64,000 nucleotides of DNA, taken from assembly GCA_016748015.1 (NCBI GenBank), contig JAAOMT010000445.1, positions 486,874 through 550,873 of the forward strand. The letters run 5' to 3'. Position numbers and translations under genes: made by a program. Of this stretch, positions 2,045 through 57,000 are shown piece after piece. The stretch's first letter is position 1. Each line of letters opens with the position of its first letter. The notes beneath the pieces were generated by a model. That model made no database searches. It had not been told where the DNA came from and worked only from the letters and a program-made list of their open reading frames with translations. Source of the stretch: Geosiphon pyriformis uo1 (Eukaryota; Fungi; Glomeromycota).

Positions 2045-2732
2045 ATAATTATTTCTCGAAATATTCAATAAATATCTTAAAAATTAATGTTAGCCTTGAA
2101 AATACTTCCTGATCTATCCATAATAATTAATAAAAGTCAAATTAATTACATTCAAAAAAAAACCACAATACTAGTAGTAAATTATTCTTAGAATTATCAC
2201 TTCTATAGAAGAAAAACAAAAAGCTATTCTGGAATTCAGTTACCAAAACTGTTAAAGCAAGCACTAAAAAAAAATTTTTATTTGCCTCTATTAATATTTT
2301 ACCAAATATTACAATATAACAAAAACTTTTACAACTTTTTAATGAACAGAACAATAACTATACCCTTATCTATAGATATTTTCACATTGGAAAAACACTT
2401 TATGAACGAAAACTGAATCTTGAAGCAACAAACATCACTTCTGAAGCTATACAAAAACAAATTCACAATGAATTCAAGACAGCAGCTGAATCAACAAACA
2501 TTTGCTACAAACTTAGAGCAGCATTTAGACTCTATAATTTATTTAACACTTGTAAAAATGTCTTACAAAAATTTAATACTTTAGCCAATAAAGATTCAAT
2601 ACATTAGAAAGCTCACAAAACTGAAATTTCCACAGTTTTTAGATTAAATCACTTCAATTATTTTGGACCACTATCTTGACATTACAAATAATACTTAGAC
2701 TTCAACAAAGCTCAGTCTTGAGGAAAAAATTA
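2045..2732 (+). pseudogene. ORF3 of element A, unknown function
   Basis: Translates to ...YRYFHIGKTLYERKLNL...ICYKLRAAFRLYNLFNTCKNVL, homologous to E 22364-23040. Confidence 0.75.
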
Positions 2733-3707
2733 TGTTACCAGTAAAATTTTAGCTATTAATTAGCATGAAATCATCTTCATAATTCTTATTATTAATTAGC
2801 ATATACTATTATCATTTGAATTATCACTTATTATTTAATTAAATTATCAAATATTATTACTCAATTAATAACCTGATTTGTACTATAGAAATTAAGATAA
2901 TCAAATTACACAATACTTTAAACCATTTAATATAGTTAAAAATTTGCCGAAATTGATAAAAAATTGGCCGAAATAATCAATAATTTGTAGAAATAACTTG
3001 GAGTATATTAAAATGTATTTTTAGTTTACCAAAATTGAAGCAAAGAGAAAAATGCAAGTTCAAAGACTAGTGCTACAACAAGTTGTATAAAAGAAAAGCT
3101 TTTTTTTTCAAGAAAATGTATTTTTTTATAGTATCTTATTATAATATATTACTTTAGATATCTTAATTATAACAAATTACTTTTTACAAAATCAAATAAA
3201 AATTAAATATTTGAAAATTAAATCCTTAAATTATTATACTTGAAATTTCTTTTACAACTAACATTTTGAAATTAATTAGCTACCAATTTCAGTAATCTGT
3301 TAGTGACTCCAGATCTGGATAGAAAACGTTTTTCTTGTTAGAATTCTATTTTTTTTACATTTTTTTTATTTTTTTATTTTTTTTTCTTATCATAATTATT
3401 AAAATAGCCTACAGACAAAATTTTTGTAGAAAAGTTGACTTTTATAGCAAAGTAACTACACATTTTTTAGTGAGCTTCCAGATGAGCAATTCTTAAGAAA
3501 GAGTTGACATTTACTACAATGTAACTACATAAAGCAACTGACATGGAATTAGCCATTTTACTTATAAGTCCAGCAGTTCAAATTATATGAGATAATTTGA
3601 AGATAAATTCAGTTATTAAAGATTCAACTGCTTTCAAAAAACGTGAAATTAGCAACAGACAGACATTAACAAAATTTAAGAAAAGATACCAAAAATCTCT
3701 AATAATA
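2733..3707 (+). repeat. 3' LTR of element A
   Basis: Starts TGTTACCA after purine tract GAGGAAAAAATTA; ends in mutated CTCTAATAATA (E: CTCTGGTAACA); alignable to E LTRs. Confidence 0.9.
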
Positions 3708-7097: not shown

Positions 7098-7359
7098 GAA
7101 AGCACCAAATATTACCAAAAGATTTTGATCTCTTTTTTTGAATGTTGTTAATGCTTAATTGCTGTAAATTCACATTTTCTGGAAGTAGTTCAATTTCTGA
7201 TAACTGAATTTATTTTTAAATTATCTTCTATAATTTGAACTGCTGGGCTTATAAGTAAAATGACTAATTCTATATTAGTGTTATAGGTAATTATTTAGGT
7301 GTTGGAGTAAATAACAAACTTATAATTTGGTGCTCAATAACTATTTTGAATAATGTTGG

Positions 7360-11306: not shown

Positions 11307-11325
11307 TTTGGTGCTCCCTGTGAGG
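11307..11325 (+). other. Primer-binding site of D, TGGTGCTCCCTGTGAGG (tRNA-Ile(UAU)-like)
   Basis: Directly after the 5' LTR; complementary to a ...GAGCACCA tRNA 3' end; tRNA identity is inferred. Confidence 0.7.
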
Positions 11326-14218: not shown

Positions 14219-15181
14219 TGTTACCAGACAAAATTAGAGATATTATTTAGCATGAAATTATCTTATAATTTCTATCATTAATTAGCATATATTATCGTTT
14301 CAAATTATCACTTATTACATTAGCAAAATATCCGAAATTATCATTTAATTAATAACCCAATTTGTACACAACACAAATGTAACCTAATTGCAATGATCAA
14401 TCATGCAATACCCCGAACTATGTAACATTTAAAAAGTTCGCCAAAATTTGTAAAAATTCACCAAAATAATTGATAGTTCACCGAAAAATTTAATAGTTTG
14501 CCAAAATATATCTTTAGTTCAGCAAAATTGTAAAAAATAGCAAAGTTCAAGTTCATAGAATAGTGTTATAACAAGTTGTATAAAAGAAAAACTTCTTTTT
14601 TCGAGAAAATGTATCTTACTTTAGATTTATCACTTAGAACTATTCCTATACATACAAAAAAAAATAAATATCAAATAATTTGAAAAAAAAACCAAGTTTT
14701 TTAATTATTGCACTTAGAAAATCCCCAAAACCTGACTAACATTTCGAAATTGATTAGCTACCAATTTCAGTAAACTGTTAGCGACTCCAGGCCTGGATAG
14801 AAAATGTTTTCCTTGACAGAATTCTATTTCTTTTACATTTCTTTTATTTTTCTTTTATTTTCTTATTACAATCATTAGGGTAGCCTACAGATGAGATTCC
14901 TGTAAAAGAATTAACTTTCACAGCAAATTAACTACACATTTTTAGTGAGCTTCCAGGCAAGCAATTCTTGGAAAAAAGTTGATGTTTATTACAACGTAAC
15001 TACATAAAGTAACTGGCAAGGAATTGGCCATTCTACTTATAAGCCCAGCAGTTCAAATTATAGAAAATAATTTAAAAGTAAATTCAGTTACTGGAGGTCC
15101 AACTACTTCCTGAAAACGTGAATTCACAGCAAATCAACATTACCAACATTTAAGAAAAGAGACCAAAAACCTCTGGTAACA
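14219..15181 (+). repeat. 5' LTR of element E
   Basis: TGTTAC...GTAACA; 20-bp-period array at ~14431-14530; polypyrimidine tract ~14821-14868. Confidence 0.95.
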
Positions 15182-17100
15182 TTTGGTGCTCTCCCACAGA
15201 AACAACACAGCAATAACAAATTCAAAGTGGCAACCGCCTCAGACATTACAACCCTAGAGTACTATCAATCGATTTACACACACTGTAAACAACAATTTGA
15301 AATACGCGACGGAATCATAGCTTTCAAGAAAACACTTTTTCAATACATCGAAAATCGAATCAACAACTACTTTTTTGGAAACTATAACATTACAACAGTT
15401 AAAAGAGATCTTCTTGAAAACATACTACACTATTCCAACACTAAAGCAGAAAACATTAGTGCTGAAGCTTGTGCTACTTATTTTGAGGAACTTGATTATA
15501 ATATTATTTGATTCTGTGAAGAAAAATATCCTGCAAATGCACAATTTGTTTTTGAACTCAAATCTGAACCTTAAACCAGTAGCAACAAAAGACAAAGAGA
15601 TAACTGACCTGTTTACACAACACCCAATACTCCCAAAATATTATTCAAACATTTACAAACACCTGAACAAGGAACCAGTTCAAAACTTCTACTTACTATC
15701 ACACCTTTTCCAGCTTCACTTGCACAAGCACAAACACCTAATTCACCCTTGAATCAATTTGCAAGACCAGAAGATTTTACATCACTTAGAAGTCCCACCA
15801 GATAACAAAAACCCCTTCAAACTAGTTCCAATCTCCTTGACTTTCTAGCTGAAAATCAAAGTGAACACTCTGAGACAGCAGCGAATGAAGAAAATGAACT
15901 TGAAATATCTAAAGAAGAATCAATAGACAGTAAAAACGAAGAAGACGAAATGACAACATACATCGCAAAAATCCCTGAATTTAATAAAGAAGACATTGAG
16001 ACCAGTCCCCAAGAATGGCTCGACCAAGTTACTAAAGCTAGAGATGTAAATGGATAGAATGCTGCCAGAATGTTAAGAACAATTCCCTACTTTCTCAAAG
16101 GAATGGCAGGAGAATGGTTTGAAAACCTGGCCGCTCCATTCAATGATTGAAATGTCTTCAAAGCAGCCTTTCTTGAACAGTTTACTGACAATAATACCTC
16201 CATCACCCTTTGCAATTGTTTTAAAAATATCAAACAAGAACCCTCCGAATCTGTTATAACTTATATTGGGAAATTCAACAAACTTTTCAGACAAATTCGC
16301 CAACTCGAAACAAACAATTATTATTCTGATGCTCAAATCTTGGATCAATTTATCGCTGGTCTAAAAGATAAACTAATTAAAAAGGTTTGCTCACATGCAC
16401 CAGAAGATTTAAACTCTGTCATACAGCATGCAAAAAGATACGAAATGGTCATAGAAAAGGCCAATCGTACCAAACTTGTAAATTTGGCAATTGGAAAAAC
16501 CAGCTTAGCAGCTGAGAAAAAAATTGACCAACTCACAAAGAAGGTTGAAAACTATTTCACCAATCAACAACAACAGCAACTCCAAAGATATCAACCACCC
16601 CAAAGATGACATCAAAATAACTTTGCACTACTTTTCAATAACCAATCTCAGAATTGTCATTACTATGGAATCTCTGGCCATTAGAAAAGAGATTGCAGAA
16701 AGCTGCAACGAGACCAACAAAATAGGAGTAATCAATGTCACCCTTCACTACAGCAATTTTATTATCAACCACCACCACCAACTTACTATCCACCAAGACC
16801 TCAGTACCAAAATAACTATTATCAGTCCGTTTTACAGCCAATCCAACAGCAATACCAGCAACCATCCACACAATATTATCAAGTACTCGCTCAAAGACTG
16901 ATTACACAAAATCAATTCACACCACAAAACCGATACCAAGTAAACAACAATAGAATTGGTTTGAACAACCAATTGGTTCTCCAAAATTCCATTCAACCAA
17001 AACCCAACCACTACCACACTCAACCCAGTTATTTAACAATGCCAGAAGAACAGGAGTTTCATCATACTGCACCTTCGGAAGGTAGAGCTGCAGCACAACA
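15182..17100 (+). pseudogene. gag of element E (long N-terminal extension, capsid-like core, CCHC knuckle, Q/P-rich tail)
   Basis: IPYFLKGMAGEWFE, IKQEPSESVITY, QFIAGLK, CHYYGISGH*KRDC in one frame with scattered stops. Confidence 0.88.
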
Positions 17101-17199
17101 ACAAAATTCTTTTCATAATCACACCACTATTCCACCAGCCCGAATTGCTGAAAACGTCAATCTCACTGATATTTTTCCTTTCGAGTTCGAAGCCAATGA

Positions 17200-17620
17200 A
17201 TCACTATTTCTACTTAGCAATACAGCTGCCAATGAACAAAAAGCAATCATGGCTATGTACACTGAAGCAGAAGTTAAAGGAAAGACAATTCGCTTGATCC
17301 TAGACAGTAGATCTGCCAGAAGCATTATCACCTACCAGTTGATGCAACAGTTGAAAAAAAATGTCGACTGACCAGCTCAAACAGTAATTATCACTGCTGA
17401 TGACATGAAAAAGACCCCAGTAGAAGAAATTGACAATTTTCCATTCACTCTTGATGGAATCACCATTCCAGTCAAAGTTCTTGTAATGGATGCACCCCAG
17501 TACCAAGCTCTCATCGGAAATAATTGGCTCCAAAAAGCCAATGCTAATCTGAATTGGAAAATACAAGAGTTAACAATTTCCTACCAAGGACGACATGCCC
17601 AGATACCTGCCACTTGTGGT
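17200..17620 (+). pseudogene. Aspartic protease of element E
   Basis: LILDSRSARS (mutated DSG), YQALIGNNWL. Confidence 0.9.
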
Positions 17621-17819
17621 ACATTCAACAAACGCTTTGAAAAAGTCCCAGCTTTTGAATTCGAACTGAAAGAGGAAAAACCCCTTATTAAAACATTCAT
17701 GGCACTTGGATCAACATCCAACTGGGCCAATGAAACAGAACAAAAACATTTTACCCTGCACCCTGAATCCGAAACCTCTGGATAGAATATATCTTACTCA
17801 AAACCCAAACCAAGGAAAC

Positions 17820-18450
17820 AATGCCCTTATATTCCCCTTAAATGTAAGAACTGCCACAAAAAACTATCGTCAATGGGAGCCTGCATTTTGCCTGAAAAAG
17901 AATATGAAAATCATACTTGTTATTACTGCAAAGCTTGCCACAGAGAACAATGGAGCCATCTAATAAAAAGGAGCGGAAAATAGGACAACACCTCCTGTTT
18001 GACTTGTGGAGATATGCTACTGGAAGAATGCAATTGGATTGATGTAGCCATGAGAGGAGGAGTCTGTGATCAGACCTGCCAATATGCTTTATCAATTTCA
18101 GAAAAAGTAAAAAGAGGAACACTCTTTAATGCAGCATACAGCAGTGCTCTCAACAAACTTTATCACTATCCCTATGATGTCAAAATGATTTTTGACCTAG
18201 CAACAGCATTAATTAATGGAGCTACCAAAGAAGATGTTTGCCAAATGAAGGAAGCAGAATACATTGAATACACCATGGAATTAGCTGGATTCGATTATGA
18301 AGACAAAGTAGAAGTCTACCACCAAATCACAAGTCACACCTACCCAACCCAAGAAGCTTAAATTTAATAATTAGAGCAAATGAACATTAGGCTATGTGAA
18401 GAATGCATTATGCCTTATAATGAACAGTGGTGTCCTGAATGCTATGCTCT
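17820..18450 (+). other. Cys-rich putative zinc-binding domain between protease and dUTPase
   Basis: CKNC, HTCYYCKAC, CLTC, CDQTC, CEEC, CPEC in frame; homologous segments in B, C and F. Confidence 0.75.
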
Positions 18451-18569
18451 TAGCATTCTCTTGCCCAGCAAAAATGATGAATACGAAATTAAATTTGGAG
18501 AACTTGAAGCAACAGAAGAAATTGAGACAATACCAATCTATCTCATTGAAAATCAGCCTGCTTTACAAC

Positions 18570-18995
18570 TCAAATATTTCAACAACAATGGACAAGGAAT
18601 AAAACCAGAAAAAGCCCACGAGATTGATGCTGGATATGATCTAAGATATCCAGGAAAAGATACTCTTACTCTCAAACCCAAATCTCTCACAAAAATCAAT
18701 CTTAAAATTGCCCTCAAAATCCCACCAGGAGCAATGGTTCAAATTGCTTTTCAATCATTCTTGGCAAGCAAAAGAATCAATGTTAGAGGAGAAATTATTG
18801 ATGCCAGATACACAGGAGACATCACAGTCATGTTACAAAATGAAACAGATAAACTTTTCAAAATTGGATATGCTGAAAAAATTGCTCAAGCTATCTATTT
18901 ACCCTTAATCAACATTTCGGGTTTACAATTAGTTAATCAAAAAAAACAGTTGGGAAAAAGCGAAAGAGGAATACAAAGTTTTGGTTCAACTGGAT
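18570..18995 (+). pseudogene. Trimeric dUTPase domain of element E
   Basis: All five motifs in order: AGYDL, (R)SxLA, IIDAxYTG, KIAQ, ERGIQSFGSTG. Confidence 0.92.
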
Positions 18996-19419
18996 GTTTC
19001 ACAGTTCTAATAAACATAGCTCTCAATAAACAGAAAGAATCTTACCAGATTTTACAACTTCCACAACCAATTACTATTTCACCCTTTGGAGAACACCCTG
19101 AAATTTACATTTGTAAAAAGCCAACAGTCACACAACAAATTTTTGAATTAAATGAACAAATCTGCTTGAAACATAATATTTCAATCCCAAACATTTATAT
19201 TCCAGAAGGAACAAAGAAAGTCCGAGTTATTTTTTACAATCCCAACAATTATCCCATAGTTTTATTAAATAACTTAGAAATTAGAATTATTCACAGTAAC
19301 ATTTTTCAACAAGAATTACTCCAAACAGTCCCCAATTTTTCTGAAATTATTGGACATTTACTACCAAAAATCAACCCAAACCCAGCTTCAAAAACTACCA
19401 TATTGTTATAAAAAAACTA

Positions 19420-20835
19420 TCTCAAATCAACATGGGACAACTTGAACCACAACAACAAAACCAGCTCAAGAAACTAATTGCAGATTTTGCCAATATCTTT
19501 GCCAAAAACAACAATGACTTAGGAAGAACCGATTTGGTACAACACCAAATCTATACAGGAGATGCCAAACCAAGATGACAACAAGCCTACTGAGTTGCTC
19601 CAGAAAGCCACCAATTTATCCGAAAAGAAGTACAATGAATGCTTAACAATAGGCTTATCCAACCATCAATGAGTCTATGGGCCTCACTGGTAGTCCTAGT
19701 TAAAAAGAAGAATGGAAAGATACGATTTTGTGTTGATTATCGACAACTCAACAGTGTTACCATTGGGAATGCTTACCCTCTTCTGTGAATCGATGACATG
19801 TTAGATGCCCTTGGAAAATCTAAATACTTTTCAACATTAGACCTAGAAAGAAGATACTAGCAAGTTGCCATGGATCCCAAGGACTGCCCCAAAACAGCAT
19901 TCACAACACAAGAAGGAAACTACGAATTTAATGTAATGCTCTTTAGATTATGCAATGCGCCAGCAACATTCCAAAGACTTATGGATATTGTATATGCTGG
20001 ACTCTTTTGGAAATCAGTAGTTGTCTATCTTGATGACACTGATGTTTATTTCCCATCTTTCGAACTTTATTTAATTCACCTGCGAAAAGTTTTTCAACAA
20101 TTACATAGAGCAGGATTAAAACTAAACATTGAGAAATGCCATTTTGGAAAAACAAGTTTGGCCTTTCTTGGTCACATAGTTAGTGAAAAAGGAGTCAAAC
20201 CAGATCCAGGAAAAATCAGTGCTGTTAAGAACTTCAAAGTTCCACAAAATACTACAGAACTAAGAGGATTCATAGGATTAGCATCCTACTATCGGAAGTT
20301 TATTAAAGGATTCTCAGAAATTGCAAAACCCCTCAACCAGCTCACCACCAAAAACGTTGAATACAAATGGACTACCGAACACCAAAAAGCTTTTGAAATT
20401 CTCAAGGAAAAACTGACAACAGCCCCAATTCTCGCCTACTTGGATTTCAGCAACCAATTTTGACTAGCTACAGATGCTTCATATACTGCTTTTGGTGCCA
20501 TCTTATCACAATTAGATGACAATGGAAATAAGCGAGTAATTGCTTATGCTAACAGAACATTAAAACCAGCTGAGAAAAACTACCCTGTCACAGAACTAGA
20601 AACAGCAGCCGTAATTTGGGCCCTACACCACTTCAACCTTTATCTCAGGCCTAAAAAATTCGATATTATTACTGATAATATTAGACTCAAATGGCTTCAG
20701 AACAAAAATACTCAGCTGAATGCAAAACAAACCCGATGGACAGAATTTCTAGCAAACTATCAATACATAGTACATCACAAACCAGGAAAACTTCATACCA
20801 ATGTTGACTGTCTCTCCAGAATGAAACAAGATTAG
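19420..20835 (+). pseudogene. Reverse transcriptase and RNase H of element E, ends ...LSRMKQD*
   Basis: RFCVDYR, KTAFTT, NAPATFQR, YLDD, TDAS, DCLSR. Confidence 0.95.
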
Positions 20836-20877
20836 AAAACAAAAACCAACTTAACCAACCAAAAGAGCCAACAAACA

Positions 20878-22263
20878 ATGAATTCAGAAAATTACAACAA
20901 TCTCAAACAATATTTGGAAACATTAACAATCCCAACAGATTGGTCTCCAGATGAAAAACATCGACTACAACAACAAGCCAAACAATATTTTCTATACAAC
21001 AACATTATTTATTATCAAAATTTCAAAAACCCAAACAAACCACTCAGATTAATACAAGAACAGAAAAAAGAGACCATATTATACAACATGCACTCAGATC
21101 CTTTATCAGCACACTTCGGAAAAAATAGCACCACTCAAAGAACACTAGAATACTACTTTTGGCCTCGAATAAGGAAAGACATTCATGAATATGTCAAATC
21201 TTGTGATAGTTGTCAAAGAAGAGGAGGAACACACCCTATTGAACCATTAAATCCAATCAAAGTTGGACAACCCTTTGACTGAGTTGGTATCAATTTAGTT
21301 GGACCATTATCTATTACCATTCAAGGAAACCGTTATATTGCAGTAGCTGTAAACTATCTTACTAAATGGCCCGAAGCCAGAGCCATTCAACGAGCAGATG
21401 CAAAATCAGTAGCAAATTTTATCTACGAAGACATCATTTGTAGACATAGATGTCCAATTGAACTTTTATCTGATCAGGGGACACATTTTGTAAACAACCT
21501 AATATAAGAAATTTGCAAACAATTCAATGTCAAAAGACCTCTGTCTTTGCCCTACTATTCACAAACAAATGGATTTGTGGAACGTTTTAACAGAACATTG
21601 TGTGAGTCATTAACCAAAGTCTTAACCGATTTTAAGCAAGAATGGGATATCTTTATTCCATCAGTGTTACTAGCATATAGAACACTAAAACAAAATACCA
21701 CAAAACACACACCATTTGATTTAACTTATGGAAGGACAGCAACACTACCAATTAAGTTCACAGTGGAAACATACCCAGCACAACCAATCAATGAAAACAA
21801 TTTTCAGGAAACACTTCAATGAAGAGCCTACACTCTGCTTAGCACATTGGAAGGAAAATGATAAATAGCAGCCACTCATATTGAACACTCCCAAGCTCGA
21901 CAAAAAGAACAGCATGATGACAAATTGCCTCCAGTCACCAATGAATTTAAAATTGGAAACAAAGTTCTCTTACACAGAACTAAAGCTGAAAAACAATGGA
22001 GTGGAAAATTTGAAAATAAATGAGATAGACCATTCTTTATCCATAAAGTCCTAGGCAATGGATCATACAAGCTAAGACTTAATGACAAAATCTTAACAAA
22101 AGTTGCACATAGAAATTGGTTGAAACACTATCATTCCAGAAACAATCCTGAACTATTAATTCCACAAATTGGTATACATTCCCCTTTAGTCAATCCCGAA
22201 GATATTCCCTGAAACTTAGAACCAATAGTTGTCATTAAACAACTTTCCAACCTGAACACTTAA
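20878..22263 (+). pseudogene. Integrase ORF of element E (own ATG, no chromodomain)
   Basis: H-x6-H...CDSC, SDQGTHF, QTNGFVERFNRTL, GPF remnant. Confidence 0.93.
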
Positions 22264-22363
22264 TTTAATTTTATTAGTTATTCCCTTATAATTTAGAAAT
22301 AATCAAAACAAAAATAATATAAAAACCCATACACCAAAAATAATTTTCTTTTATTCTCTTATA

Positions 22364-23052
22364 ATGACTATTCCTCAAAACATTCAACAATTATTCCAAA
22401 AACTAATGTTAGCTTTAAAAAACAATACCCAAATTATCTATTACTGTTACTGGAAACCACATTAATTATACCCAAACAGAAGTAGTTGCAAAATTAGCCC
22501 CAAATTTACGAAAATATTACCCATATAAAAAAAACACAAGAAGTTATTCTGGAATTCACCTGCCAGAACTTTTAAAGCTTGCTTTAAGAGAAAACCTAAT
22601 GCTTACTCCGATTAGTATTCCACCAAATGCTACAATTCAACAAAGACTTTAACTGTGTCTCAATGAGGAAAACACTGAATATCCTCCAATCTATAGATAT
22701 TTCTACATTGCAAAAACACTTTATGAATGGAAACTGGAACTTACAACAGCAAACCTCACAAAAGAAGCTATTTAGAAACAACTCCACAATGAATTCAAGA
22801 CAATAGCTGGACCAACAAACAGTCACTACAAGCTCAGAGCTGCTTTTAAACTTTATGATCTATTCCACACCTGTGAAAATGTTCTACAAAACCCAATTTT
22901 ACGATCTTTGAAGATACAATACATTGGAAAGCTCACAGAATTGAAATTTCAACAATTTTCAGACCAAATTTCTTCAATAATTTTGGATTATTATCTGGAA
23001 ATGACAGACAGTACTTGGACTTTTATGGGACTCAGTCTTGAGGAGGAGGTTA
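22364..23052 (+). pseudogene. ORF3 of element E, unknown function
   Basis: ATG at 22364; ...YRYFYIAKTLYEWKLEL...YKLRAAFKLYDLFHTCENVL...; runs into the PPT. Confidence 0.75.
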
Positions 23053-24015
23053 TGTTATCAGACAAAATTAGAGATATTATTTAGCATAAAATTATCTTAT
23101 AATTCCTATCATTAATTAGCATATATTATTGTTTCAAATTATTACTTATTATATTAGCAAAATATCCGAAATTATCATTTAATTAATAACCCAATTTGTA
23201 CACAACACAAATGTAACCTAATTGCAATGATCAATTATGCAATACTCTGAACTATGTAACATTCAAAAAGTTTGCCAAAATTTGTAAAAATTCGCCGAAA
23301 TAATTGATAGTTCATCGAAAAATCTAATAGTTTGCCAAAATGTATCTTTAGTTCAGCAAAATTGTAGAAAATAGCAAAGTTCAAATTCATAGAATAGTGT
23401 TATGACAAGTTGTATAAAAAAAAAACTTCTTTTTTCGAGAAAATGTATCTTACTTTAGATTTATCACTTAGAACTATTCCTATACATACAAAAAAAAATA
23501 AATATCAAATAATTTGAAAAAAAAACCAAGTTTTCTAATTATTGCGCTTGGAAAATCCCTGAAACCCGACTAACATTTCGAAATTGATTAGCTACCAATT
23601 TCAGTAAACTGTTAGCAACTCCAGGCTTGGATAGAAAATGTTTCCCTTGACAGAATTCTATTTCTTTTACATTTCTTTTATTTTTCTTTTATTTTCTTAT
23701 TACAATCATTAAGGTAGTCTACAGACAAGATTCCTGTAGAAGAGTTGACTTTCACAGCAAATTAACTACATATTTTTAGTGAGCTTCCAGATGAGCAATT
23801 CTTGGGAAAGAGTTAACATTTACTACAACGTAACTACATAAAGTAACTGGCAAAGAATTGGTCATTCCACTTATAAGCCCAACAGTTCAAATTATAGAAA
23901 ATAATTTGAAAGTAAATTCAGTTACTGGAGGTCCAACTACTTCTTAAAAACATGAATTCACAGCAAATCAACATTACCAACATTTAAAAAAAGAGACCAA
24001 AAACCTCCAGTAACA
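23053..24015 (+). repeat. 3' LTR of element E
   Basis: Direct repeat of 14219-15181. Confidence 0.95.
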
Positions 24016-27354: not shown

Positions 27355-27921
27355 ATGGACCTTTCAGATCAAATTTTAAAATTATTTAAACAATTATTTG
27401 AAACAATTCAAAAATCAACATCTTAAATAGAAATAACAATTGATAAAAAAGAGATACAGTACAAAGATAAGAGCAGGAGAAGGGAGGACGAAAGTTCAAT
27501 TAGAACTAAACATTCTCTTTCCTACCCACCACCCGAAAGACAATATGAGAGGAAAAATTGCCTTTGGGTGGGGGGTGGAAAAGAAGGAGGCAAAGAACGA
27601 GAAAAAGGTTACAAAAGAAGATACTTGGTCCTTGAGCTCGAAGAAATAAAAGAAACAATACAACAAGTAGAAAAATTTGTAGGGAAAAACAACCTGACCC
27701 TATATTACAAAGCAGCATACCGACTATACACCGTCTTCCAACATTGCCCAAATATACTACTGAACGGATCTATGAAAACCATAATGGTTAACAGCATAAG
27801 ACAAATAACCAATCAACAGTTTGAAGACCTACAAAAGGCAATACTTGAGGCAACAATCGAACATTACACAAACAAAGCCATGATAACAGATACATATGGT
27901 TTCACAGGAGCTCAATTTTAA
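27355..27921 (+). pseudogene. ORF3 of element D (~188 codons, one internal stop)
   Basis: ATG 27355 is in frame with track ORF 27568-27921: YYKAAYRLYTVFQHCPNILL; stop abuts the PPT. Confidence 0.75.
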
Positions 27922-27935
27922 AAAGAAAGGGATAA

Positions 27936-29032
27936 TGTTACTTGAGTAGAAAAACCAATCCAAAGTTATAAAGAAACATGACCAAAATGTGACATAATAC
28001 AGAATAATGCACAATAACATTGAATAATGCATTATAACATTGGATAATGTGTTATAATGCAGGATAACACAGAATAGTACACAATAACATAGGATAATGT
28101 GTTATAATGCAGGATAACACAGAATAACATGTAATAATGTCAGATAACGTGTTATAATATAGGATAACTAGTAATAACGTAGAAAAACGAAGCAATAACA
28201 GAAACAACAAAGCAATAACTAGCAATAGCAAAACAATTGAAAGCAATCCTGTAAAACCAAAAGAATATATAAAAGCAAGTAGTTATACAAATGAGAAAGG
28301 ACAGAGAAAAAAATAGATACGAACCTCTAGACCAAAAATTAAAATATCTATACCCTTTTATCCTTTATTATCTTCCTTATTTCATTTCCTGAAATAAACC
28401 AATTATTAAAAGAAATTAGAATCACAAATTCATGTTCTCAAACTTTGTGGAATTTATGTGAATTAACCCTTGTCTTGTACCTCCATTCTAGAACAGATGT
28501 TCTTAGCATAACTGCCTCGAACCTATTAATGATTTGGACCAATTGCTCTTGATCATGGTGATTGACAATACTAATTTATCTTTTCTCTCTTTTCTTTTCT
28601 TTTTTTTTCTTTTTTTTTTTCTTTTTTTTTCTGTCTTAATTTTTTTGTGAAGTGGCAACATAGTAAAATTGACTGTCTGAGAATAGACTTCGTAATAGCC
28701 TGGTAAAAAAGGGAAGCTTCCCCTAAGTTTTGGATATTAACATTATCTTGTTAGCTTACCAGAAGGGCGAAAAGACAATGCCAGACCCTAACAACTGCGC
28801 TCATTAGCTTGGAGAAGAAAGCTCACATTTACAAAAAATGTTGCAATTGACGAAAGACAAACTCTGTGCCTTATAACCAAAGAACTCAACGGGTAAAATT
28901 CACATCCAGGAATAGACCTTCAGAGACTAATAATCAAGACTAAGCCAACAGAATTATGCGGAAGATGCATCATCAATAATTGAGAGCACCAAACATTATC
29001 ATTTTTTATACCCACCAAGTTTACCCGTAACA
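27936..29032 (+). repeat. 3' LTR of element D
   Basis: Direct repeat of 10215-11306, preceded by PPT AAAAGAAAGGGATAA. Confidence 0.95.
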
Positions 29033-32000
29033 TCAGAAATATTAATGGTAATGTATCTAGAACTGAAAATATCACCAATAGCCAGAACTTGATTCAAACA
29101 ATACTACCAGCTATTGTCACAGAAGATAGCAGCCTCGTAGCTATTTTTATTTTTGAATTAGAAGAAAAAGAGGCTATGTTTAGTGGAGCAGCATTGGACG
29201 AGGAATGCCCAATCACTGCTATATACACAGAAGCAAAAGTAAACAACATGCCAATCAAACTTATTTTAAACAGTGGATCCGCTAAAAGCATCATAATGCT
29301 TTAACTAGTAAATCAACTGGGTTTCAAAGTTGATTGTGTCACAATGTCCCAAATTATAACAACTGATAGAAATACAAAGCTGCCTCATGGCAAAATTAAC
29401 TTATTCCCTTTCAAAATTAACGGCATAATAATATCTACAAAAGTATTAGTAATGAATGTTACATAATATCAAGCATTAGTAGAAAATGACTGGCTAACAA
29501 AAGCCAATGCCACCCTAGACTGGACCACCCAAGAGCTTCTGATCAATTATAATGGCCACTAGGCCAGAATTCTAGCCACTTGTAGCCACTTCTAAAAACC
29601 AAGCACCAACCAAAGACCTACCTTTGAATTTGAGGAAAATCCAGCACTACCAGCCATTGAAACCTATCAGCTCTCTTGGGCTGATGACCAAAGAACAGAA
29701 CTACTAGCTATATCAACATGAATCAGCAAAGAAAGATTTGAATAGAACCAGATAAGTCCATAAAGAAACCACCAGTAACACAAACCAAAGCTAGAATACT
29801 CAGTTTACAAGAAAAAACTCTTGTTCATGACTGTGTGCAGCGCACCAGACAAAGACCCAAAAAACCCCACCCACTACTATTGTAATCATTGTAACAAAAA
29901 AAAATATGGTTATCCAGAAAGACACGGAAAATGGGACAAGGAATTGTGCTTTGCTTGTAGAGAACCATTACCAAAAGGGTACAACTGAAATAACATACCA
30001 GGCAGAAGAGGAACATGTGACACAACTTGCCAATACACAATCCTTATCTGTAACTGGGTAAGAGGAGAAACACTGTTCAAAACAGTGTTCAACAGAGCAT
30101 TAAGAAGTCTGCAGTACTACTCACATGACAAGAATGAGTTATATAACATCACACAAGCCAAAGTAAGAGGAAGAACCACCGAAGAAATATGACATTAGAA
30201 AGTGTCAGCTGAAATAGCTAACAAAGTTGCCAACTACAACATGTTCAATCTAGTAGATGAATTCTAAGAAAATTATCAACAGCTGTGTTCCACTTGCCAA
30301 GAACAGGAACAGTATCTTGTTCAGATTAACACTTACTTTTGCAAAAACTGTCTTATCCTGTGCCAAAGTTAGTGTTGTGAAGAGTGTCAATACAAAAAGG
30401 ACTTGGCAAAAAAAATGGAAATTGAGAATCAGCAGTACCAAAATCAATCAATAAATCAACAAAACTCAACAGTCCCAAGTCAGAAAATATTTTAGCCTAT
30501 ACTGATCTAACTCAGAAAATCAGTATCCAGTACTATAACAATGGGCACTTAGGAATAGTACCCAAAAGAGCCTATCTAACTGATGCCAGATTCAATCTAT
30601 GTTATCCAGAAGACCAATCCAAAATGTTACCTTCCAAGAGCATTACCAAAATTGACCTAAAAATAGCAGTTGAAATTCTGCCAGAAATAATGGTTCAAAT
30701 AGTGTCATGATTAAGTTTTGCAAAAAAAGGAATAAGCATTCAAGAAAAAATAATTGACTCTGGCTACACTAGAAATTTGATGGTTTTACTACAGAACAAT
30801 TCAGAAAAATCTTATACTATTAAATCTAAGGAGAAGATTGTACAAGCAATTTTCCTATCATTAGTAAAAATTAGAAAATTTATACTAGTGGAAAATCAAG
30901 AAGAATTGACACAAACAATGAGAAGAATTTATGGTTTTAGATCAACAAGAAAAGGAATTGAAGCAAATTTTATTGAAATGCCAGAGGAAAAAAATGAATT
31001 AATCAGAAATGAGTGGTCAATCACGCTCATGCCTTATAGAAAATCAGAAATTAAAATAAAAAAAACAATAAAAGATATAAATCTAATATTTGAGCCCCAT
31101 CCAAAAACTTGCCAACAGTTTCTCATAGGACTTACTAACCTTTTTATTCCAGCTGACAAAACACAATGGATAAAAATTCCTATCACAAATATTACAGAAG
31201 AGCTTATATACATTCCAGAAAATACCATCATAAAATATCTTGGAACAGAGCTAGAAAACGCATTAACACTACAAAAAATTCTAAATTTTCCAGAAATTGC
31301 CCTTTATTATAAACTCACTTTAATAAATTGGCAACAACTGTTGGAATGCTATCAATTTATGCCAGAAAAATTGGCCAAATTAAACATTGGAACAATGGAT
31401 TTGGACCAACAGTGACAATTAAAAGCATTAATTTTAAAATACTCTGATATATTTTCACAAAATGGCAAATTTGGAAGAACCAACTTGGTTTAACACCAAA
31501 TTTCTACTGAGAATGCTAGACCTGAAAAACAATGTGCTTACTATGTCCCACCAATGGAGCATAATTTTATCAGAGAAAAAGTCCAAAGCATATTGGAAAA
31601 AGGAATAATTCAATCATCAATGAGCTCATAGTCCTTACCAGTTGTTTTAGTAAAGAAAAAGAACAGAAAAATTAGATTTTGCATCAACTATTGCAAACTA
31701 AACAGCAAAACAACCAAAAACTCATACCCAATACCATTAATTGACGAAATCTTTGATGTTTTTGGAGGAGCAAAATGGTTTTCTACACTTAACTTGACCA
31801 GTGAATACTGGCAAATAGAAATAGACCTAAAAGACAGGCATAAAACAGCATTCACAACACAAAATAGCAATTATAAATTCAATATAATGCCATTTGGATT
31901 GACAAACACTTCCATAACATTCCAAAGATTAATGGACGTAATTTACTCTGGAATTCTGTGGTAATCTGTTGTTGTCTACTTGGATGATACAAATGTTTTC

Positions 32001-32783
32001 TCACCAAAATTTGCAGATTATCTCCAATATTTACAACAAGTTTTTGAGAAATTGAGACATACTGGACTTAAATTAAATTTAGAAAAATGTTTTTTTGGGA
32101 AAAATGAGCTAACATTTCTAAGACACATAGTTGGAAAAGATGAAATAAAACCAGATCCATCAAAAATAGACAAAGTAAAAAATTTTCCAGAACCTCAAAA
32201 CGTTTCAGAAGTTAAAAGCTTTTTAGGACTTGCATCTTACTACTGCCACATTGTAGAAAACTTTTCAAACATTGCCAAACTTTTTAATTATCTACTATCT
32301 AAAAATGTAAAATTTGAATAAACCGAAACACAGCAAAAAGCTTTTAAGTATCTTAGACAAAAGCTCATTGAATTACCAATAATGATTTATTCGGATTTCA
32401 ACAAGAAATTCATTTTGGCCACAGATGCCTTTGGAATGGAATTTAGAGCCATTCTTTTACAAAAAGATGATAATAAAAGAGAACGTGTAATTGCTTATGC
32501 CAGTAGAAGTCTCAGTATGGCAGAGCAAAACTATGCAGCACATGAATTAGAATGCTTAGCAGTAGTCTGAAGTTGTGTTTACTTTGATACATATTTACAG
32601 TATAAACCCTTTGATATTATCACAGATTATAGAGGTCTGGTCTGGTTAAATAACAAAAAAATGCTGAAAAAAAAATATGCCAGATGGTCACAAATATTAG
32701 TACCATACAATTATATCATCAAATACAAAGAAGATGCCAAAAATGCCAATGCTGACTGTTTGTCAAGAATGAGACACACATAA
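29033..32783 (+). pseudogene. Protease, Cys-rich domain, dUTPase, RT and RNase H of element C, ends ...LSRMRHT*
   Basis: ILNSGSA; YYCNHC, CFAC, CDTTC; IDSGY, KIVQ, GFRST; YLDD; ATDA. Confidence 0.9.
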
Positions 32784-32819
32784 AAATCATGAACCCACTC
32801 ATCAATTAGAGTATTTGAC

Positions 32820-33096
32820 AAAGCAACAATCCAACAATTAGAAAGTTTTATTGAAAAAACCAATAGTACATTCAATTCAAAAAGCAGTTTACAGAATTTT
32901 CAAAGCATTTAAAAAATTGTCACAAAGTATTACTGGATCCAATCATGAACATAATAACAACCAACAGTATTAAACGACTTACCAATTCACAATTTCAAGA
33001 ATTACAACAACAAGTTAATAATACAGTATTGAACTACTATAGCAACTTAGAATTCAATGCAGAAATTAACTTCAATTTCAATAGAGCTTAATCTTG
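32820..33096 (+). pseudogene. C-terminal remnant of ORF3 in element C (integrase absent)
   Basis: KAVYRIFKAF..CHKVLLDP...SIKRLTNSQFQEL only ~100 bp after the RNase H stop. Confidence 0.7.
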
Positions 33097-33110: not shown

Positions 33111-33949
33111 TGTTACAGTTCAAGAATTTAATAGGAATTATAAATAATATAAATTAGCCAATCATGAAATAGCACAGTAACAATTTATAAAAAAAAATGA
33201 TTTACAAATAACAGCAAGCACTATCATGCAATAGCAGTAAGCACTATTTTACAATAGTAGCAAGCACTATCGTGCAAAAGCAGCAAGCACTATTTTACAA
33301 TAGCAGCAAGCACTATTTAGAAATAATGAAAATAAAATATTACAAGATGTTATTTTGTAAAACAATAATTATATATATATACAATAGTTTTAATGATGAA
33401 AAATTGAACAAGCTTCAATTAGAAGCAACAAATATCTAAATAAAATTTTATTCAAAAAGAATTAATAAAAATAATAAATTAAATAAACATCATAATTACA
33501 AGATTAACAATAGAATTCACATACTTTCTCTAGCAAATGAAACTATCATTCCATTTCTGAACCCTTTGGAAGAATAATTCCTGATCAAGATTATTCACGT
33601 GGTTACTAATTAAATTGAAAAAGCTTTATTATATACTTAGGGAAATTGCGAAAAGACCATTAATATTCCATGTTTCTAGATTAGAGAAACACATCAAACA
33701 ATTGCAAAGATAGCCTCAGAGAAGACCCCAAACAGTGGGTAGATTTCAGATTAGCCTCTGGGAAGGAGTACACAACATACAAAGACAACTAGAATTAAAA
33801 AGAAAACTTACATCACAACATCAAGAGAAAACTTTCAGTACATTATCATTAATATCCAACACATAAAATAGAGAAACTCATGAGAGACTGATTGCAATTA
33901 AAACGGGAGATCAACAATTAAAATAATCCAAAAAAACACTCCTATAACA
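33111..33949 (+). repeat. 3' LTR of element C
   Basis: Direct repeat of 7360-8198. Confidence 0.93.
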
Positions 33950-33953
33950 TTGG

Positions 33954-34776
33954 TTTCTGAAGGTTTTTGTAATCTGAAAGTTTTAGTTGAGTCTTTTATA
34001 TAATAAATAGAGATTTAGGTATTGTTTTAATAGTTTTCTAAAATGTGTATTCCATTAATTTCTGTTTTTAACATAATAATTAGTTTATTTTGACAGTCAT
34101 GTCTTTTTGGTAAGCTAGTCTTAAATTTCTTAATTTTTTATTCTTATTTCTGGGTCTTTTATCAGACTATCTTTAATATCAATAACTTAGTGCTTTAATT
34201 TCTTAATTAATTAGTAAACAACAAGAAACAAAATAAAAAAAAATAAAAAATTGGTATTCTGTTAATAGTCATAATCAAGAACTATTGGTTTAATATGATT
34301 AAGTATTAGTAGCTATCAACATAAAGTGTTAATAGTAACAAGTAAATGTTAATTAACAATCAAGTGATGATAATATAAATTGAACGATAAGAATTGTTTA
34401 TTAATATTTGATGATTTTTATTTTAAGTCATAGAATACTATTATATAAAGAAATAGGTGTTGGCTTTTAAACTAAAAATTCTTGGATAAATTTTGTTTTT
34501 TCTGTTACTAATATTTTCATTATATATATATAATTTGGGTTATATAAGATTGCTCACATTTCCAAGCAATGTGTTATAATTTCTTAAACAATACTCATAT
34601 TGCTAAACAATATGCTGTGATTTCTGACAATGCTTTATATTATTAAATAATATGTTATAATTTCTAATAATACTCCACATTGCTAAACAATATGCTTATA
34701 TGCTAAATACTATTTTCTTATTGACCTATCTGTTTTTCTAATTATTTTTTCTTGTACTATTTTCTTATGAATAACA
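33954..34776 (-). repeat. Remainder of the 3' LTR of element F, with 40-bp-period array at ~34556-34700
   Basis: Matches ~42995-43799; followed by decayed PPT complement. Confidence 0.88.
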
Positions 34777-34789
34777 TTATTTTTTTTTA

Positions 34790-37700
34790 ATATTAAGCTT
34801 TGTTAAAATTTTTACTTTGAATTAGGTCTATTACTTCTTTTTTTAATATTATTTGTTCAACTCTGTTTCTTATGTCTTCAATTTGTGAGTTGCTTATTCT
34901 TTCTCATTAGTTAATAGTTATTGTCTCCATATTAAGGTATAACAATATTTTTGAACAGTTTTGAAATATAGTGTATAGTTGATAGATTATTCTGATGTGT
35001 AGTGTTAAATTTGTTTTTTTTCTAATAATGTTTTTAATGTTTTATATTATTTTTTGGTTGAATATTCTTTTTGATTTATCAAAATATAACTTTTAAATAT
35101 TTAATTTTTGTTCCAATTAATAGTAATAGTATAATATTGGAAGTTGTTCTATCCATTGGTTTTAATTTTTTTGGTGAGTTTTTCTGTTAAAATTATGATA
35201 GATATTTTTCCAAAATTGTTTTTTATTTTTTCTATTATTTTATCTGACCAGTATTTGGTTGGTTTTGTAGTCATTAATATAGAGCACTTCTTGTTTTTTT
35301 TTCTTGTTTAATGTTTTGATAGCAGATTGTTTGGTCATTAATAATAATTTTTATGTCCAATTGTTGTTGGTTTACAGTTTGAAATAGTTATTAAGCTAAA
35401 ATGTGAATATAGTCTAGTATTTTCATCTTTTATTGTTGCTTTGATCATGTATATTATGTCTTTATATATTTTTAATTAATTAATTTGACATGTTTGAATT
35501 GATAATTATGATTGGTTTCAGATCTTGTAAAATTTTATTTGGTTAGACTAGTATTTATTGTATTTCTAGTTGTAGAATATTACTAATAAATAATGATGTT
35601 ATATTGTAATATAATTTCAATCAATTTTTATGTACTGTTTTAGTTAAGATTTGGTTGTCTTATTTTAATTTATAAACTCTATTTCCTAAAATTTCTTCAA
35701 TTTAAAATAGTTCATCTTATTTGGAATTAAATTTTCTATTCTATTGTTTTTCTACTTTGGTATAATATAAAAGTACTTTGTTTTTAATCTTAAATTTGAT
35801 TGGTTTATCTAATAATTGATTTATCTGATAACTGGTTATTATGCTATTTTTTTGGTTTTTCTTGTGACTTTTAAATGTTATTAGCTGCTTTTTGTCTTTT
35901 GTTTTCCAAAGTTTCTATTAATCTGTATGTTTTGCTTAGCAAAATTCTTTAAAAGTTAATTTTTGTTATTAATTCTGTTAGATATGTGTTAATGTTTATC
36001 TTAATAGATAAGATTGCTGTTCTATTATAAACAAATCCAAATAGTGTTGCTTGTATGATATCTTGTTTTATTGTTTAATAAACAAATAATACTAATAGTA
36101 TAAACAAATTTCATTCTTTCTGGTTTTTTTGGCTGATCTTAGTTATTGCTTCACACAATGTTTTATTAAATCTTTCGATTAAGTCATTGGTTTATAAATA
36201 ATATGATAATGATAATAGTCATTTGATTCCAAATCTTTGACTTAATTCTGTTAATGTTCTGTTTACAAAGTGAGTTCTTTGATCGGATAACAATTCTTTT
36301 GGACATTTGTGTTGACAGATCAAATTTTGGTAAACAAATTTGGCTATAAATTCTGTATTTGTTTTTTGAATTGCTTTTGTTTTTGGCCATTTGGTAAGAT
36401 AATCTATGACTACTGTGATGTATCTATTGTCTTTGCTGGTTATTGTTAATGATCTGACTAAGTCAATTCCAATTTGATTAAATGATTGTCTCATTTTAAT
36501 TAATTTTAATGGTTTTCTGGATCTTTTTTCTTCTTTTATCTGACAAACATCACAATTTTGAACATATTAGATGATATCTGGATACATTAATGGCCAATAG
36601 TATCTCTTTTTAGTTCTTTTCATGGTTGCTTTTTTATGAAAATATTTTGCTGTTGGATCTGACTGCATGTTAAACAATATTGTTTTTTCTCTGGTTTTGT
36701 GATTACTTTAAGTGATTAGACTGAATATTTTCTATTTTTCTAATATAATATATTCTAATAAGTAATAAAATATTTTAATTGTTGTTTTATGCTGTTTTGT
36801 TTTTTTTGAGATAATTTCTCCTTAAACTGTTGAGTATTAATATAATATTAGAGTTGTTGATATTTTTGTGTATTTATTTTTTGTTATATTTTTGAATTGA
36901 AATGTTTAAAGTTGTCTTATTCATAATAAACTGTTAGCATTTCCAATTTTTTTCTCTTTTTATAATGTACTGTATAATTAAATAGTGATAGTTCTATTTT
37001 CTATTTTATATAACAATCATTTCTGAATTTTTGTCTCTGAATTAATGTTAATCTTTTGTTATTAGTGTATACATCAAACTTTTAACTCAAGTACTCTTTC
37101 TATTTAATAATAGCCCAATAAATAGCCAAGTGTTCTAGTGTTGGAGTTCTATAGTTTTTTTCGGCTGGACTTAAGCTTCAGTTGGCATATGCTACTGGGT
37201 GTTTTTTTTTATCTGGTCTTTTTGAGATAATACAGCTTCCAATGCTTGATCTAATGCATTAATAGTAATAATAAATAGTTTGTTGTAATCTAAATAGATC
37301 AGTATTAGTGCTTGAATAAACTTTCTTCTCAAGATATTAAAAGCTTTTTGTTGGGTTTCTGTCTATTTATATTTTATGTTCTTTGCTTAAAGCTGGTACA
37401 ATAGTTGAGCCAGTTTGGAGAAATTTTGGATAAAGTGGCTGTAGTATCTAGTAAATTCTAAGAATGTTTATAGTTCTGTTAAGTTTGTTAGTCCTAAAAA
37501 GTTCTTTACTATTTTGATTTTATTTGGGCTTGTCTTAATGCCATTTTTGCTTATAACATGTCCCAAGAATTTTAGTTCTGTTTTGCCAAAGAAGCATTTT
37601 GTTGTATTTAGTTTCAATCTTGCTCTTTTCAATCTTTCAAATATTTACTGAAGATAATACAGATGATCATCAAATGTTTTTGAAAACACATTGGTATCAT

Positions 37701-54024: not shown

Positions 54025-57000
54025 TGTTACAGTTTAAGTTTTTAATAAGAATTATAAATAATATAAATTAGCCAATCATGAAATAGCACAGTAGCAATTT
54101 ATAAAAAAAAATAATTTACAAATAACAGCAAGCACTACCATGCAATAGCAGCAAGCACTATTGTGTAATAGCAGTAAGCACTATTTTACAATAGCAGCAA
54201 GCACTATTGTGCAAAAACAGTAAGCGCTATTTAGAAATAATGAAAATAGAGTATTATAAGACATTATTTTGTAAAACAATAATTTTTAATGATAAAGAAA
54301 AAACAGCTTCAACTAAAAGCAACAAATATCTAAATAAAATCTTATTCAAAAAGAATTAATAAAAAAATAATAAATTGAATAAATATCACAATTATGAGAT
54401 TAACAATAGAATTTACATATTCTTTCTAGCGAATGAAACTATCATTCCATCTTTAAATCCTTTGGAAAAATAATCTCTGATTAAGATTATTCACATGGTT
54501 ACTAATTAAATTGAAAAAGCTTTATTATATACTTAGGGAAATTGCGAAAAGGCCATTAACATTCTATGTTTTTAGATTAGAGAAACACATCAGACAATTG
54601 TAAAAATAGCCTCAAAGAAGACTCCAGACAACAGGTAGATTTCAGATTAGCCTCTGAAAAGAAGTACACAACATACAAAGACAACTAGAATTAAAGAGAA
54701 GACTTACATCACAATATCAAGAGAAAACGTTTAGTACATTATTATTATTATCCAACACATAAAATCAAGAAACTCACAAGAAACTGATTGCAATTAAAAT
54801 GAGAGATCAACAATTAAAATATACCAAAAAAACACCCCTGTAACATTTGGTGAATCTTACAAAGAAAAAAAATAATAATTAGCAATAATTCATTGCTAAA
54901 AAAGAAGAAACAAAAGTGGTGACAAAAACCCCTATCCTTATTATTCTTTAATTCTGCCGTGCTATTTACACACAAAATCAAAGTGATTTTGAATTATCAG
55001 AAGAGTGTTGTTCAGCTGAAAATGCCCTCACCTATTACATTAACACCAGAATAAATTATTACATAGAAAGGGAACAAAAACCAAATGATGCAAAACATCA
55101 ATTATATAGAGAATTATCTCAATTTACTACAAAAAAAACAACAGCATTAGCTGTAACTATTGTTCAAATTCATCGCAAAATTGAGCAATACACCAATGAA
55201 AATTACCCAATATCTACAAAGAATACCAGAAAACACATCCACAATCCAGAAATTAATCACGAAGAAAATCAGCAAAAATTAGAAACACCTGTCCAAACAT
55301 TCAAGAAAAATGTTGTGCAATCAGTAAAGAAACAATGCCTTCATTCGCCAGAAAAAAGATCTTATTATTTTTTCCCAGATAATAAAATCCAACTCTCATT
55401 AGGAGCTGCATCATTATTCACATCAACCCCACAAATGCCAAGAGCTCCTAATTATACTAAGAAGCTTAAACAATGCAATTGGAAAGATATACCAATTACA
55501 AGAGGATATTTATCACTATTCTAAAAAACCCTTTTTTCAACCAAAATTTGGAGTGAGGTTTGAAAACTGTGAAGAGGAGTCTGAATCAGAATCCAAAGAA
55601 ACCAGTAAAAAAGCAAGCACAAGACCAGTCACTGAAACAAGCAGCCAGTCCAGAAACCAAGAAACTTATAATTAAGAAGAAGAAATAACACATACAAAAC
55701 ACCTCAAAAACACAACCAGAAATTTAGTGGCAGCCAAAATAATCACTTATTACATTAGAACTTCAGAACAGAAATATGCGCCTGCCATTTTTGCAAACAC
55801 ATAAAACATTTGATTAGTCAATATTGAATGTGAATGATGCATGAGGCATGTGAGAATAATTATTATGCACTACCCTAAATGCCCAGGAATCAATACACAC
55901 CAATACCATGTTAATACTCTACCATGTACCAAAATTAAGAAACTTACCAGCAATGACCAGTGATTCCAAATCCAAATTGGTGTTCAGAGTTTTAAAGCCA
56001 GCCAATATTAGGTCAAAATGCAATTATTACTAGAAATCTTAATTGCATAGGATCTAATCAGCAAACAAACACAAATCATCCAAACTACTTAAATTTTCAG
56101 CCAATTTATTTTAATATATTGGAAAACTTAAATCTCAGAAATATTAATAGTAATATATCTGGAACTGAAAATATTACCAATGCTAACTGCTTGTTGCAAA
56201 TGAGACACACATAAAAACCATTAAACAACAATACAACAATTAGAAAGTTTTATTGAAAAAACCAACAATATACGTCATATAAAAGCTGTTCACAGAATTT
56301 TTAAGACTTTCAAAAACTGTCACAAAGTACTATTAAATTCAACTATGAATATTATAACAATTAATAATATTGAACAATTAACCAATTTACAATTTCAAAA
56401 TTTACAACAACAAATTAATAATACAGTATTAAATTATTATAGTAATATAGAAATTAATGAAGAAATTAACTTCAATTTTGACAGAGCTCAATCTTAAAAG
56501 GAGGGGATAATGTTATAGTTCAAGAATTTAATAGGAATTATAAATAATATAAATTAGCCAATCATGAAATAGCACAGTAGCAATTTATAAAAAGAAATAA
56601 TTTACAAATAACAGCAAGCACTACCATGCAATAGCAGCAAGCACTATTGTGTAATAGCAGTAAGCACTATTGTGCAAAAACAGTAAGCACTATTTAGAAA
56701 TAATGAAAATAGAGTATTATAAGACATTATTTTGTAAAACAATAATTATATATATATACAATAGTTTTTAATAATGAAGAAAAAACAGCTTCAACTAGAA
56801 GCAACAAATATTTAAATAAAATCTTATTCAAAAAGAATTAATAAAAAAATAATAAATTAAATGAACATCACAATTATGAGATTAACAATAAAATTCACAT
56901 ATCCTCTCTAGCAAATGAAACTATCATTCCATCTTTAAACCCTTTGAAAGAATAATCTCTGATCAAGATTATTCACATAGTTATTAATTAAATTGAAAAA

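Follow-up and report, generated by a model that had tools for sequence, protein, structure and literature searches.

Most extra open reading frames (ORFs) of LTR retrotransposons are without a known role, and those described between pol and the 3' LTR are envelope-like or enzymes. Additional sense ORFs at this position are known from plant and insect elements (PMC7264820); these aORF-3S or env-like ORFs are defined largely by membrane segments. In bdelloid rotifers, Ty3/gypsy-like elements that carry a dUTPase also have a third, non-env ORF, which encodes a GDSL esterase or a DEDDy exonuclease (PMC5408684). Two other accessory proteins are close to our subject in a different way: CERV, a nuclear accessory protein of the C. 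elegans LTR retrotransposon Cer1, is made from spliced RNA and acts in RNA export (PMC10309623), and VANC of the Arabidopsis VANDAL elements, which are DNA transposons, is an anti-silencing protein that binds family-specific motifs in tandem repeats and for which demethylation has been shown (PMC5735166).

Here we describe ORF3, found in a 64,000-nucleotide stretch of the genome of the fungus Geosiphon pyriformis (hereafter, the window). ORF3 is a selected, non-envelope accessory ORF of a dUTPase-bearing Ty3/gypsy lineage. It is like aORF-3S in position, orientation, presence in most copies and protein conservation, but it is fungal, is without any membrane segment and has a predicted nuclear helical domain. 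It shares with the bdelloid elements their Ty3/gypsy-like character, the dUTPase and a non-env third ORF, but whereas the bdelloid ORF3s are enzymes, the Geosiphon ORF3 matches no such family and has no invariant catalytic set. The initial annotation had proposed an undescribed, non-envelope accessory protein, and this is supported by selection, by the absence of a membrane segment and by the lack of a confident match to any described family. No description of ORF3 was found in the literature covered, which included few subscription papers and was taken without supplements, and it is apparently undescribed.

LTR elements make up 41.2% of the G. pyriformis genome (PMC11952901). Pfam matches and LTR pairs show that the window is made up of decayed LTR retrotransposons nested in one another, with pieces of gag, protease, dUTPase, reverse transcriptase (RT), RNase H and integrase in Ty3/gypsy order. 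The assignment to Ty3/gypsy is based on this succession of gag, RT, RNase H and integrase in Pfam and on LTRs with TG..CA ends, a primer-binding site, a polypurine tract (PPT) and a target-site duplication. The main landmarks are the following:

14219..15181, plus strand: 5' LTR of element E, followed by the primer-binding site TGGTGCTC; tandem array at 14437-14526
16151..22215 (approximate ends), plus strand: decayed gag, dUTPase, RT, RNase H and integrase of E (Pfam)
23053..24015, plus strand: 3' LTR of E, 94% identical to the 5' LTR, with transitions at 57 of 57 mismatches
10215-11307 and 27936-29032: LTR pair of element D
7360 (start) to 33949 (end): LTR pair of element C
near 54021-54847 and 56507-57327: LTR pair of element G
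10211-10214 / 29033-29036 and 7356-7359 / 33950-33953: 4-bp target-site duplications

Element D contains E, inserted at the end of D's dUTPase region, and C contains D; a further LTR pair, that of element F, is on the minus strand. The target duplications are of 4 bp, exact for D and C, with two transitions between the copies in E and one in G; in fungal chromoviruses the duplication is usually 5 bp. A dUTPase lies upstream of RT in four elements (13625-14278, 18371-19408, 30711-31412 and 38592-39077). The LTR pairs of C, D, E, F and G have 5.9-16.3% mismatches, of which 411/427 are transitions, and their CpG is depleted to an observed/expected ratio of 0.28. This transition excess and CpG depletion suggest strong methylation-driven decay or a RIP-like process.

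The window also holds other sequences. An E/A-type element (43808-44598 and 3703-7293, minus strand) has its 5' LTR split by F, and F is itself interrupted by C. At 45534-51778 (minus strand) there is another decayed element, whose ORF pieces look like parts of an endonuclease and an RNase H and for which Pfam gave no match at E up to 0.01; judged by eye, it is probably a non-LTR retrotransposon. ORF pieces at 61068-61907 (minus strand), which we take to look like the N-terminal region of a DNA transposase, adjoin an assembly gap, and a 230-nt direct repeat flanking a run of N at 63247-63795 is probably an assembly artefact.

ORF3 or its 3' half stands directly before the PPT in six of six Ty3/gypsy 3' ends of the window (A, C, D, E, F and G). 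With the same position held in an unrelated metagenome contig, L001, this bears out the claim of a conserved ORF between integrase and PPT in all families, and adds to the known sense ORFs between pol and the 3' LTR one that is conserved at the protein level. The motif by which ORF3 was first recognized is present in E (22845), A (2524), D (27718) and F (34984, minus strand), and tblastn added copies in G (56261) and C (32918); the cysteine of the motif is not invariant, being replaced by N in the metagenome protein P0184, by Y in F-type proteins and by R or K in H-type proteins. Frameshift-aware threading gave scores of 141-1025 for the six copies versus 33-37 for shuffled F and G regions (3 shuffles of each). 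The copies and their surroundings are:

22220..22363 (approximate start), plus strand: AT-rich spacer from the integrase end to the ORF3 start codon in E; same layout in L001
22364..23084, plus strand: ORF3 of E, 239 codons, with 1 frameshift near 22422 and stops at 22650 and 22773
23028..23049, plus strand: cis motif and PPT in E (PPT at 23040-23049)
2051..2749, plus strand: ORF3 of A, broken by 2 frameshifts and 7 stops
27355..27921, plus strand: ORF3 of D, with one stop and an internal deletion; 188/244 residues aligned
34826..35235, minus strand: aligned part of ORF3 of F, with 1 frameshift and 6 stops
32802..33088, plus strand: 3' half of ORF3 in C, fused to the RNase H end
56231..56497, plus strand: 3' half of ORF3 in G

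None of the six copies is intact. In E, 206 of 239 residues are identical to those of the intact protein P0009, and the ORF extends beyond the end at 23052 that it had first been given, crossing the PPT and then about 10 codons of the 3' LTR. It was correctly foreseen that ORF3 either ends at the PPT or reads through it: E and A read through into the LTR, and D, C and G stop at the PPT. A cis motif before the PPT is kept in all the elements (23028-23052 in E; also in A, C, D, F and G; L001:3086-3130; L002:1-40) and is translated by ORF3 in two different frames.

C and G have one common deletion junction, leading from the RNase H end to mid-ORF3 (32780-32810 and 56190-56230; G has an additional 29-nt gap), and are therefore deletion derivatives; they look like a non-autonomous sub-family. 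The RNase H and ORF3 parts of C are in one frame except for two stops, and this element may at one time have been translated as a fusion of RT, RNase H and ORF3 that lacked integrase. Because the junction is shared and only the 3' half is left, the tail retained in C and G is no evidence for a working protein, and the initial annotation was right to be cautious about it.

Full-length ORF3 copies of 211-244 aa are annotated as G. pyriformis hypothetical proteins. Searching with ORF3 of E gave 201 matches among 272 candidates, of which at least 120, all those listed, are G. pyriformis hypothetical proteins; the 32 matches (of 55 candidates) to ORF3 of D are all such proteins too, one of them 99% identical to D. 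A profile search of 1.84 billion representatives returned 76 matches, and the 20 that were looked up comprise 18 G. pyriformis proteins and two metagenome proteins, P0182 and P0184; 63 of 63 new matches resemble one of nine reference proteins at 42-100%. The 19 matches of a second profile search, among 3139 candidates, are 18 G. pyriformis proteins and P0184. Alignments of the lineages E, A, D, C/G, F, H, P0184 and P0182 run from one end of the protein to the other; identities are mostly 20-37%, with 67% between E and A, and homology spans the whole length, beyond the quoted motif (alignments A1 and A2). In a metagenome scan, 451 stretches matched and 2 were confirmed. Contig L001 has the order integrase (with one stop), 316-nt spacer, intact ORF3 of 230 codons, cis motif, PPT and LTR start; since this order recurs in an unrelated contig, the arrangement is not special to one genome. 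Many G. pyriformis gene models (P0084, P0098, P0131, P0173, P0193 and P0218 among them) splice ORF3 to pieces of adjoining elements, and such fusions are probably annotation artefacts.

That ORF3 is under selection at the protein level, as had been claimed from its amino-acid conservation, was confirmed by transversions. Between E and A, these number 15, 15 and 39 at the three codon positions of ORF3, with 12/50 at four-fold sites versus 15/229 at second positions (p=7e-4), and the codon-position pattern is seen in both halves of the ORF. The corresponding values for integrase are 19/86 and 6/400, and the three LTR frames have no such pattern. Five further pairs tested for ORF3 were small, one of them giving p<0.05. 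The dN/dS check that had been suggested (Nei-Gojobori, E versus A) gave 0.36 for ORF3 and 0.35 for integrase, but also 0.53-0.65 for the non-coding LTR and 0.42 for the +1 frame; because transitions dominate, plain dN/dS is not decisive, and transversions avoid this problem. ORF3 is constrained, less than integrase. These data bear on the possibility that ORF3 is passive captured cargo whose similarity reflects a cis-acting DNA or RNA signal beside the PPT, as the retained cis motif and the 3' halves of C and G might suggest. The codon-position pattern in both halves largely refutes that reading, the whole-length protein alignment at 22-37% identity and the intact ORF in L001 also contradict it, and we consider it hardly tenable.

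ORF3 diverges faster than integrase (22-29% versus 46-61% identity; 29% and 61% between E and L001). Five-taxon trees of the two proteins agree, with support of 98-100, the ORF3 tree being made from intact database proteins of each type in place of the window copies and leaving out C, G and H, which are without integrase.

The AlphaFold2 model of P0184 (pLDDT 78.5, pTM 0.64) consists of a helix, two strands, a low-confidence linker at 40-52 and then helices; its domain 76-212, modelled alone, reached pLDDT 87.8 and pTM 0.79. The predicted ORF3 protein thus begins with a small alpha-beta-beta module, continues with a basic, flexible linker that contains a PY motif, and ends in a domain made up entirely of helices. 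In E, the latter two map as follows:

22509..22526, plus strand: R/K-X2-5-PY motif in the linker, a candidate PY-type nuclear localization signal
22677..23009, plus strand: C-terminal all-helical domain, predicted to be a DUF1016_N/ParB-like helix-turn-helix

Only one Asn and one Leu are invariant across 57 sequences (alignment A4), so that an enzyme is not suggested. GDSL and DEDDy families were matched neither in Pfam scans of 11 proteins nor in the 25 families shown for the 57 aligned members, and such an identity was ruled out by this result together with the lack of an invariant catalytic set and the all-helical nature of the conserved domain.

The highest 19-residue hydropathy is 0.44-1.29 in seven of seven full-length relatives. 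ORF3 thus lacks a transmembrane segment, as the initial annotation had stated, and with it the hallmark of env and env-like proteins. An env-like or movement protein, spreading particles between nuclei or hyphae, would suit the env position of ORF3; given these seven relatives without a hydrophobic segment and a comparison with viral predicted structures that gave no match at E up to 0.001, we regard this as very improbable.

The known rule for PY nuclear signals is R/H/K-X2-5-PY in a disordered, basic segment (PMC2408616). The ORF3 linker matches it, but its low-confidence stretch falls short of the 30 residues that the rule calls for. The motif is present in the reference proteins of six of eight lineages (E, D, C/G, F, P0184 and P0182); one A reference has PY alone, and the other A reference and both H references are without it. 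Among the copies, it occurs in 48/75 of E, 13/39 of A, 7/13 of D and 7/8 of C/G, compared with a chance expectation of 0.4-4% per sequence for a motif that was noticed after the fact. The ORF3 protein is predicted from this signal to be imported into the nucleus.

There was no confident Pfam or PDB match for ORF3. In the ESM Atlas, the top feature match (0.93, 173/256 shared) is a cluster of Mucoromycota hypothetical proteins, and the top four predicted-structure matches are Mucoromycota clusters as well (TM 0.64-0.70; 63-98 members per cluster); the structure look-alikes include fungal proteins in RING- and SET-bearing clusters, and the C-terminal domain resembles DUF1016_N at TM 0.56, below the naming threshold, as are all the structure matches of ORF3. 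The suggested resemblance to a helical domain found in Glomeromycotina hypothetical proteins therefore holds for Atlas features and structures, through Mucoromycota clusters, but the ORF3 HMM search named no other fungus among the matches looked up.

ORF3 repeatedly gave weak DUF1016_N (PF17761) matches in register, with 12.9 bits for P0009 and a best E of 0.0028 in A4; the family cut-off of 32.8 bits was not reached. By hhalign, ORF3 against DUF1016_N had a probability of 1-3%, with shuffles scoring equal or higher; its score against ParB equals the shuffle mean, and the ORF3 HMM ranks neither YhcG nor ParB above decoys. With the DUF1016_N HMM, the two metagenome proteins score only 0.2-0.3 bits, and the 75 forward matches are mostly copies of two related families. 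Structural matches to Spo0J and KorB are weak, Spo0J being tied with unrelated helical proteins. All these links to a helix-turn-helix are weak. The predicted helical layout and the in-register motif spacing of ORF3 are similar to those of DUF1016_N (the N-terminal part of YhcG) and ParB/Spo0J/KorB; unlike YhcG and ParB, it is without a nuclease or ParB N-terminal domain, has its own N-terminal module and scores below the family cut-offs. For YhcG, the N-terminal domain has been described as helical, with no role assigned to it (PMC1189080), and ParB-type helix-turn-helix domains fused to methylases occur in some fungi and algae (PMC4738411).

Among the named Atlas feature matches, a closterovirus coat protein is the best (0.92), and a phage translation repressor is also found (0.90). 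These entries would fit a nuclear protein that binds unspliced genomic RNA and accompanies it during nuclear export or into particles, perhaps by binding just upstream of the PPT. The basic linker and PY motif suit a shuttling protein, the deleted C and G elements retain about 300 nt before the PPT, and there is a precedent in CERV of Cer1 (PMC10309623), an LTR retrotransposon accessory protein with the nuclear location that is predicted for ORF3, but one that comes from spliced RNA and acts in RNA export. Since the structural matches lead to DUF1016_N and fungal proteins of RING- and SET-bearing clusters rather than to RNA-binding folds, and no RNA-binding family was matched in the Pfam scans, we think such a role rather unlikely. 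ORF3 could instead act by binding proteins, and so suppress the host's RNA silencing or methylation enzymes without reading DNA sequence: it is soluble, helical and fast-evolving, has no invariant catalytic set, and all copies are heavily decayed by transitions. This would leave the repeated in-register DUF1016_N matches unexplained, and seems to us quite improbable.

The integrase of L001 ends in an SH3-like domain, and no chromodomain match was found in it or in a 71-residue piece of the E integrase. ORF3 might then be a chromatin tether or integration-targeting factor that replaces the apparently absent chromodomain and steers insertion to repeat-rich DNA, an idea in line with the nesting of the elements in one another and with the look-alike domains in SET- and RING-bearing clusters. 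However, ORF3 is a separate ORF behind a non-coding spacer, and its divergence, much faster than that of integrase, suits a changing target better than a fixed host mark; this explanation is unlikely.

A changing target may lie in the LTRs. Near the beginning of the LTR, every family carries a tandem array of its own, with periods of 20 bp in E, 10/20 bp in D, 23 bp in C and G and 20/40 bp in F:

23271..23360, plus strand: LTR array of E, in which a decayed 9-bp palindrome occurs five times at a spacing of about 20 bp; candidate ORF3 binding array
27994..28237 (also 10265-10477), plus strand: D-type LTR array, 10/20-bp period
33201..33318 (also 7450-7576, 54119-54232 and 56607-56694), plus strand: C/G-type LTR array, 23-bp period
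34553..34700 (also 43597-43719), minus strand: F-type LTR array, 40-bp period with a 20-bp subunit

The E palindrome has 5 matches versus 0.34 expected and a shuffle maximum of 3, and its five copies are present in both LTRs. The array motifs, picked by eye, are not common to the families beyond single matches, and L001 has four scattered copies of another motif. Autocorrelation is above that of shuffles in D, C, G and F, slightly so in E5 and the B fragment, and hardly in E3, A3 and L001; family-specific tandem motifs of the VANC type are thus clear in D, C, G and F, moderate in E and weak in A and L001. The periods of 20-23 bp are close to two helical turns. LTRs often contain tandem arrays, which may be there for host factors, and the case for these arrays as the ORF3 target is circumstantial.

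Based on these findings, we propose, with a probability of roughly 45%, that ORF3 acts in the nucleus as a DNA-binding regulator, specific to each family, of the LTR of its own element; like VANC, it would raise transcription or shield the element from methylation. ORF3 would be expressed from a subgenomic or internally initiated RNA, and its protein would enter the nucleus via the predicted PY signal; the putative ParB-like helix-turn-helix domain could then bind the family-specific tandem array in its own LTR, and the bound protein might bring about more transcription, anti-silencing (methylation resistance) or self-repression. Of the three roles first suggested for ORF3, transactivation or anti-silencing fits best and movement least. 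As a working model, the likeness to VANC lies in a fast-evolving accessory protein combined with family-specific short tandem motifs in non-coding DNA, both the protein family and its candidate array target differing among at least four families. Unlike the ORF3 elements, VANDALs are DNA transposons; binding and demethylation are shown for VANC and proposed for ORF3, and no VANC homology was found in the Pfam scans of ORF3. A more specific version, in which a self-encoded, sequence-specific DNA-binding protein of ParB/DUF1016-like fold co-evolves with a private LTR array and lifts methylation silencing, so that a VANC-like system would have arisen independently in a retroelement, is in our view doubtful.

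More than 150 "hypothetical genes" of G. pyriformis (the at least 120 plus 32 matches above, partly fragments) are transposon cargo, which bears on gene counts in this symbiont. If the proposed DNA-binding role is true, it would show how a retrotransposon stays active in a heavily mutated fungal genome. The more specific version, if it were correct, would also help to account for the share of about 41% that LTR elements have in the Geosiphon genome, and a large domain family of mycorrhizal fungi that so far has no name would gain a function.
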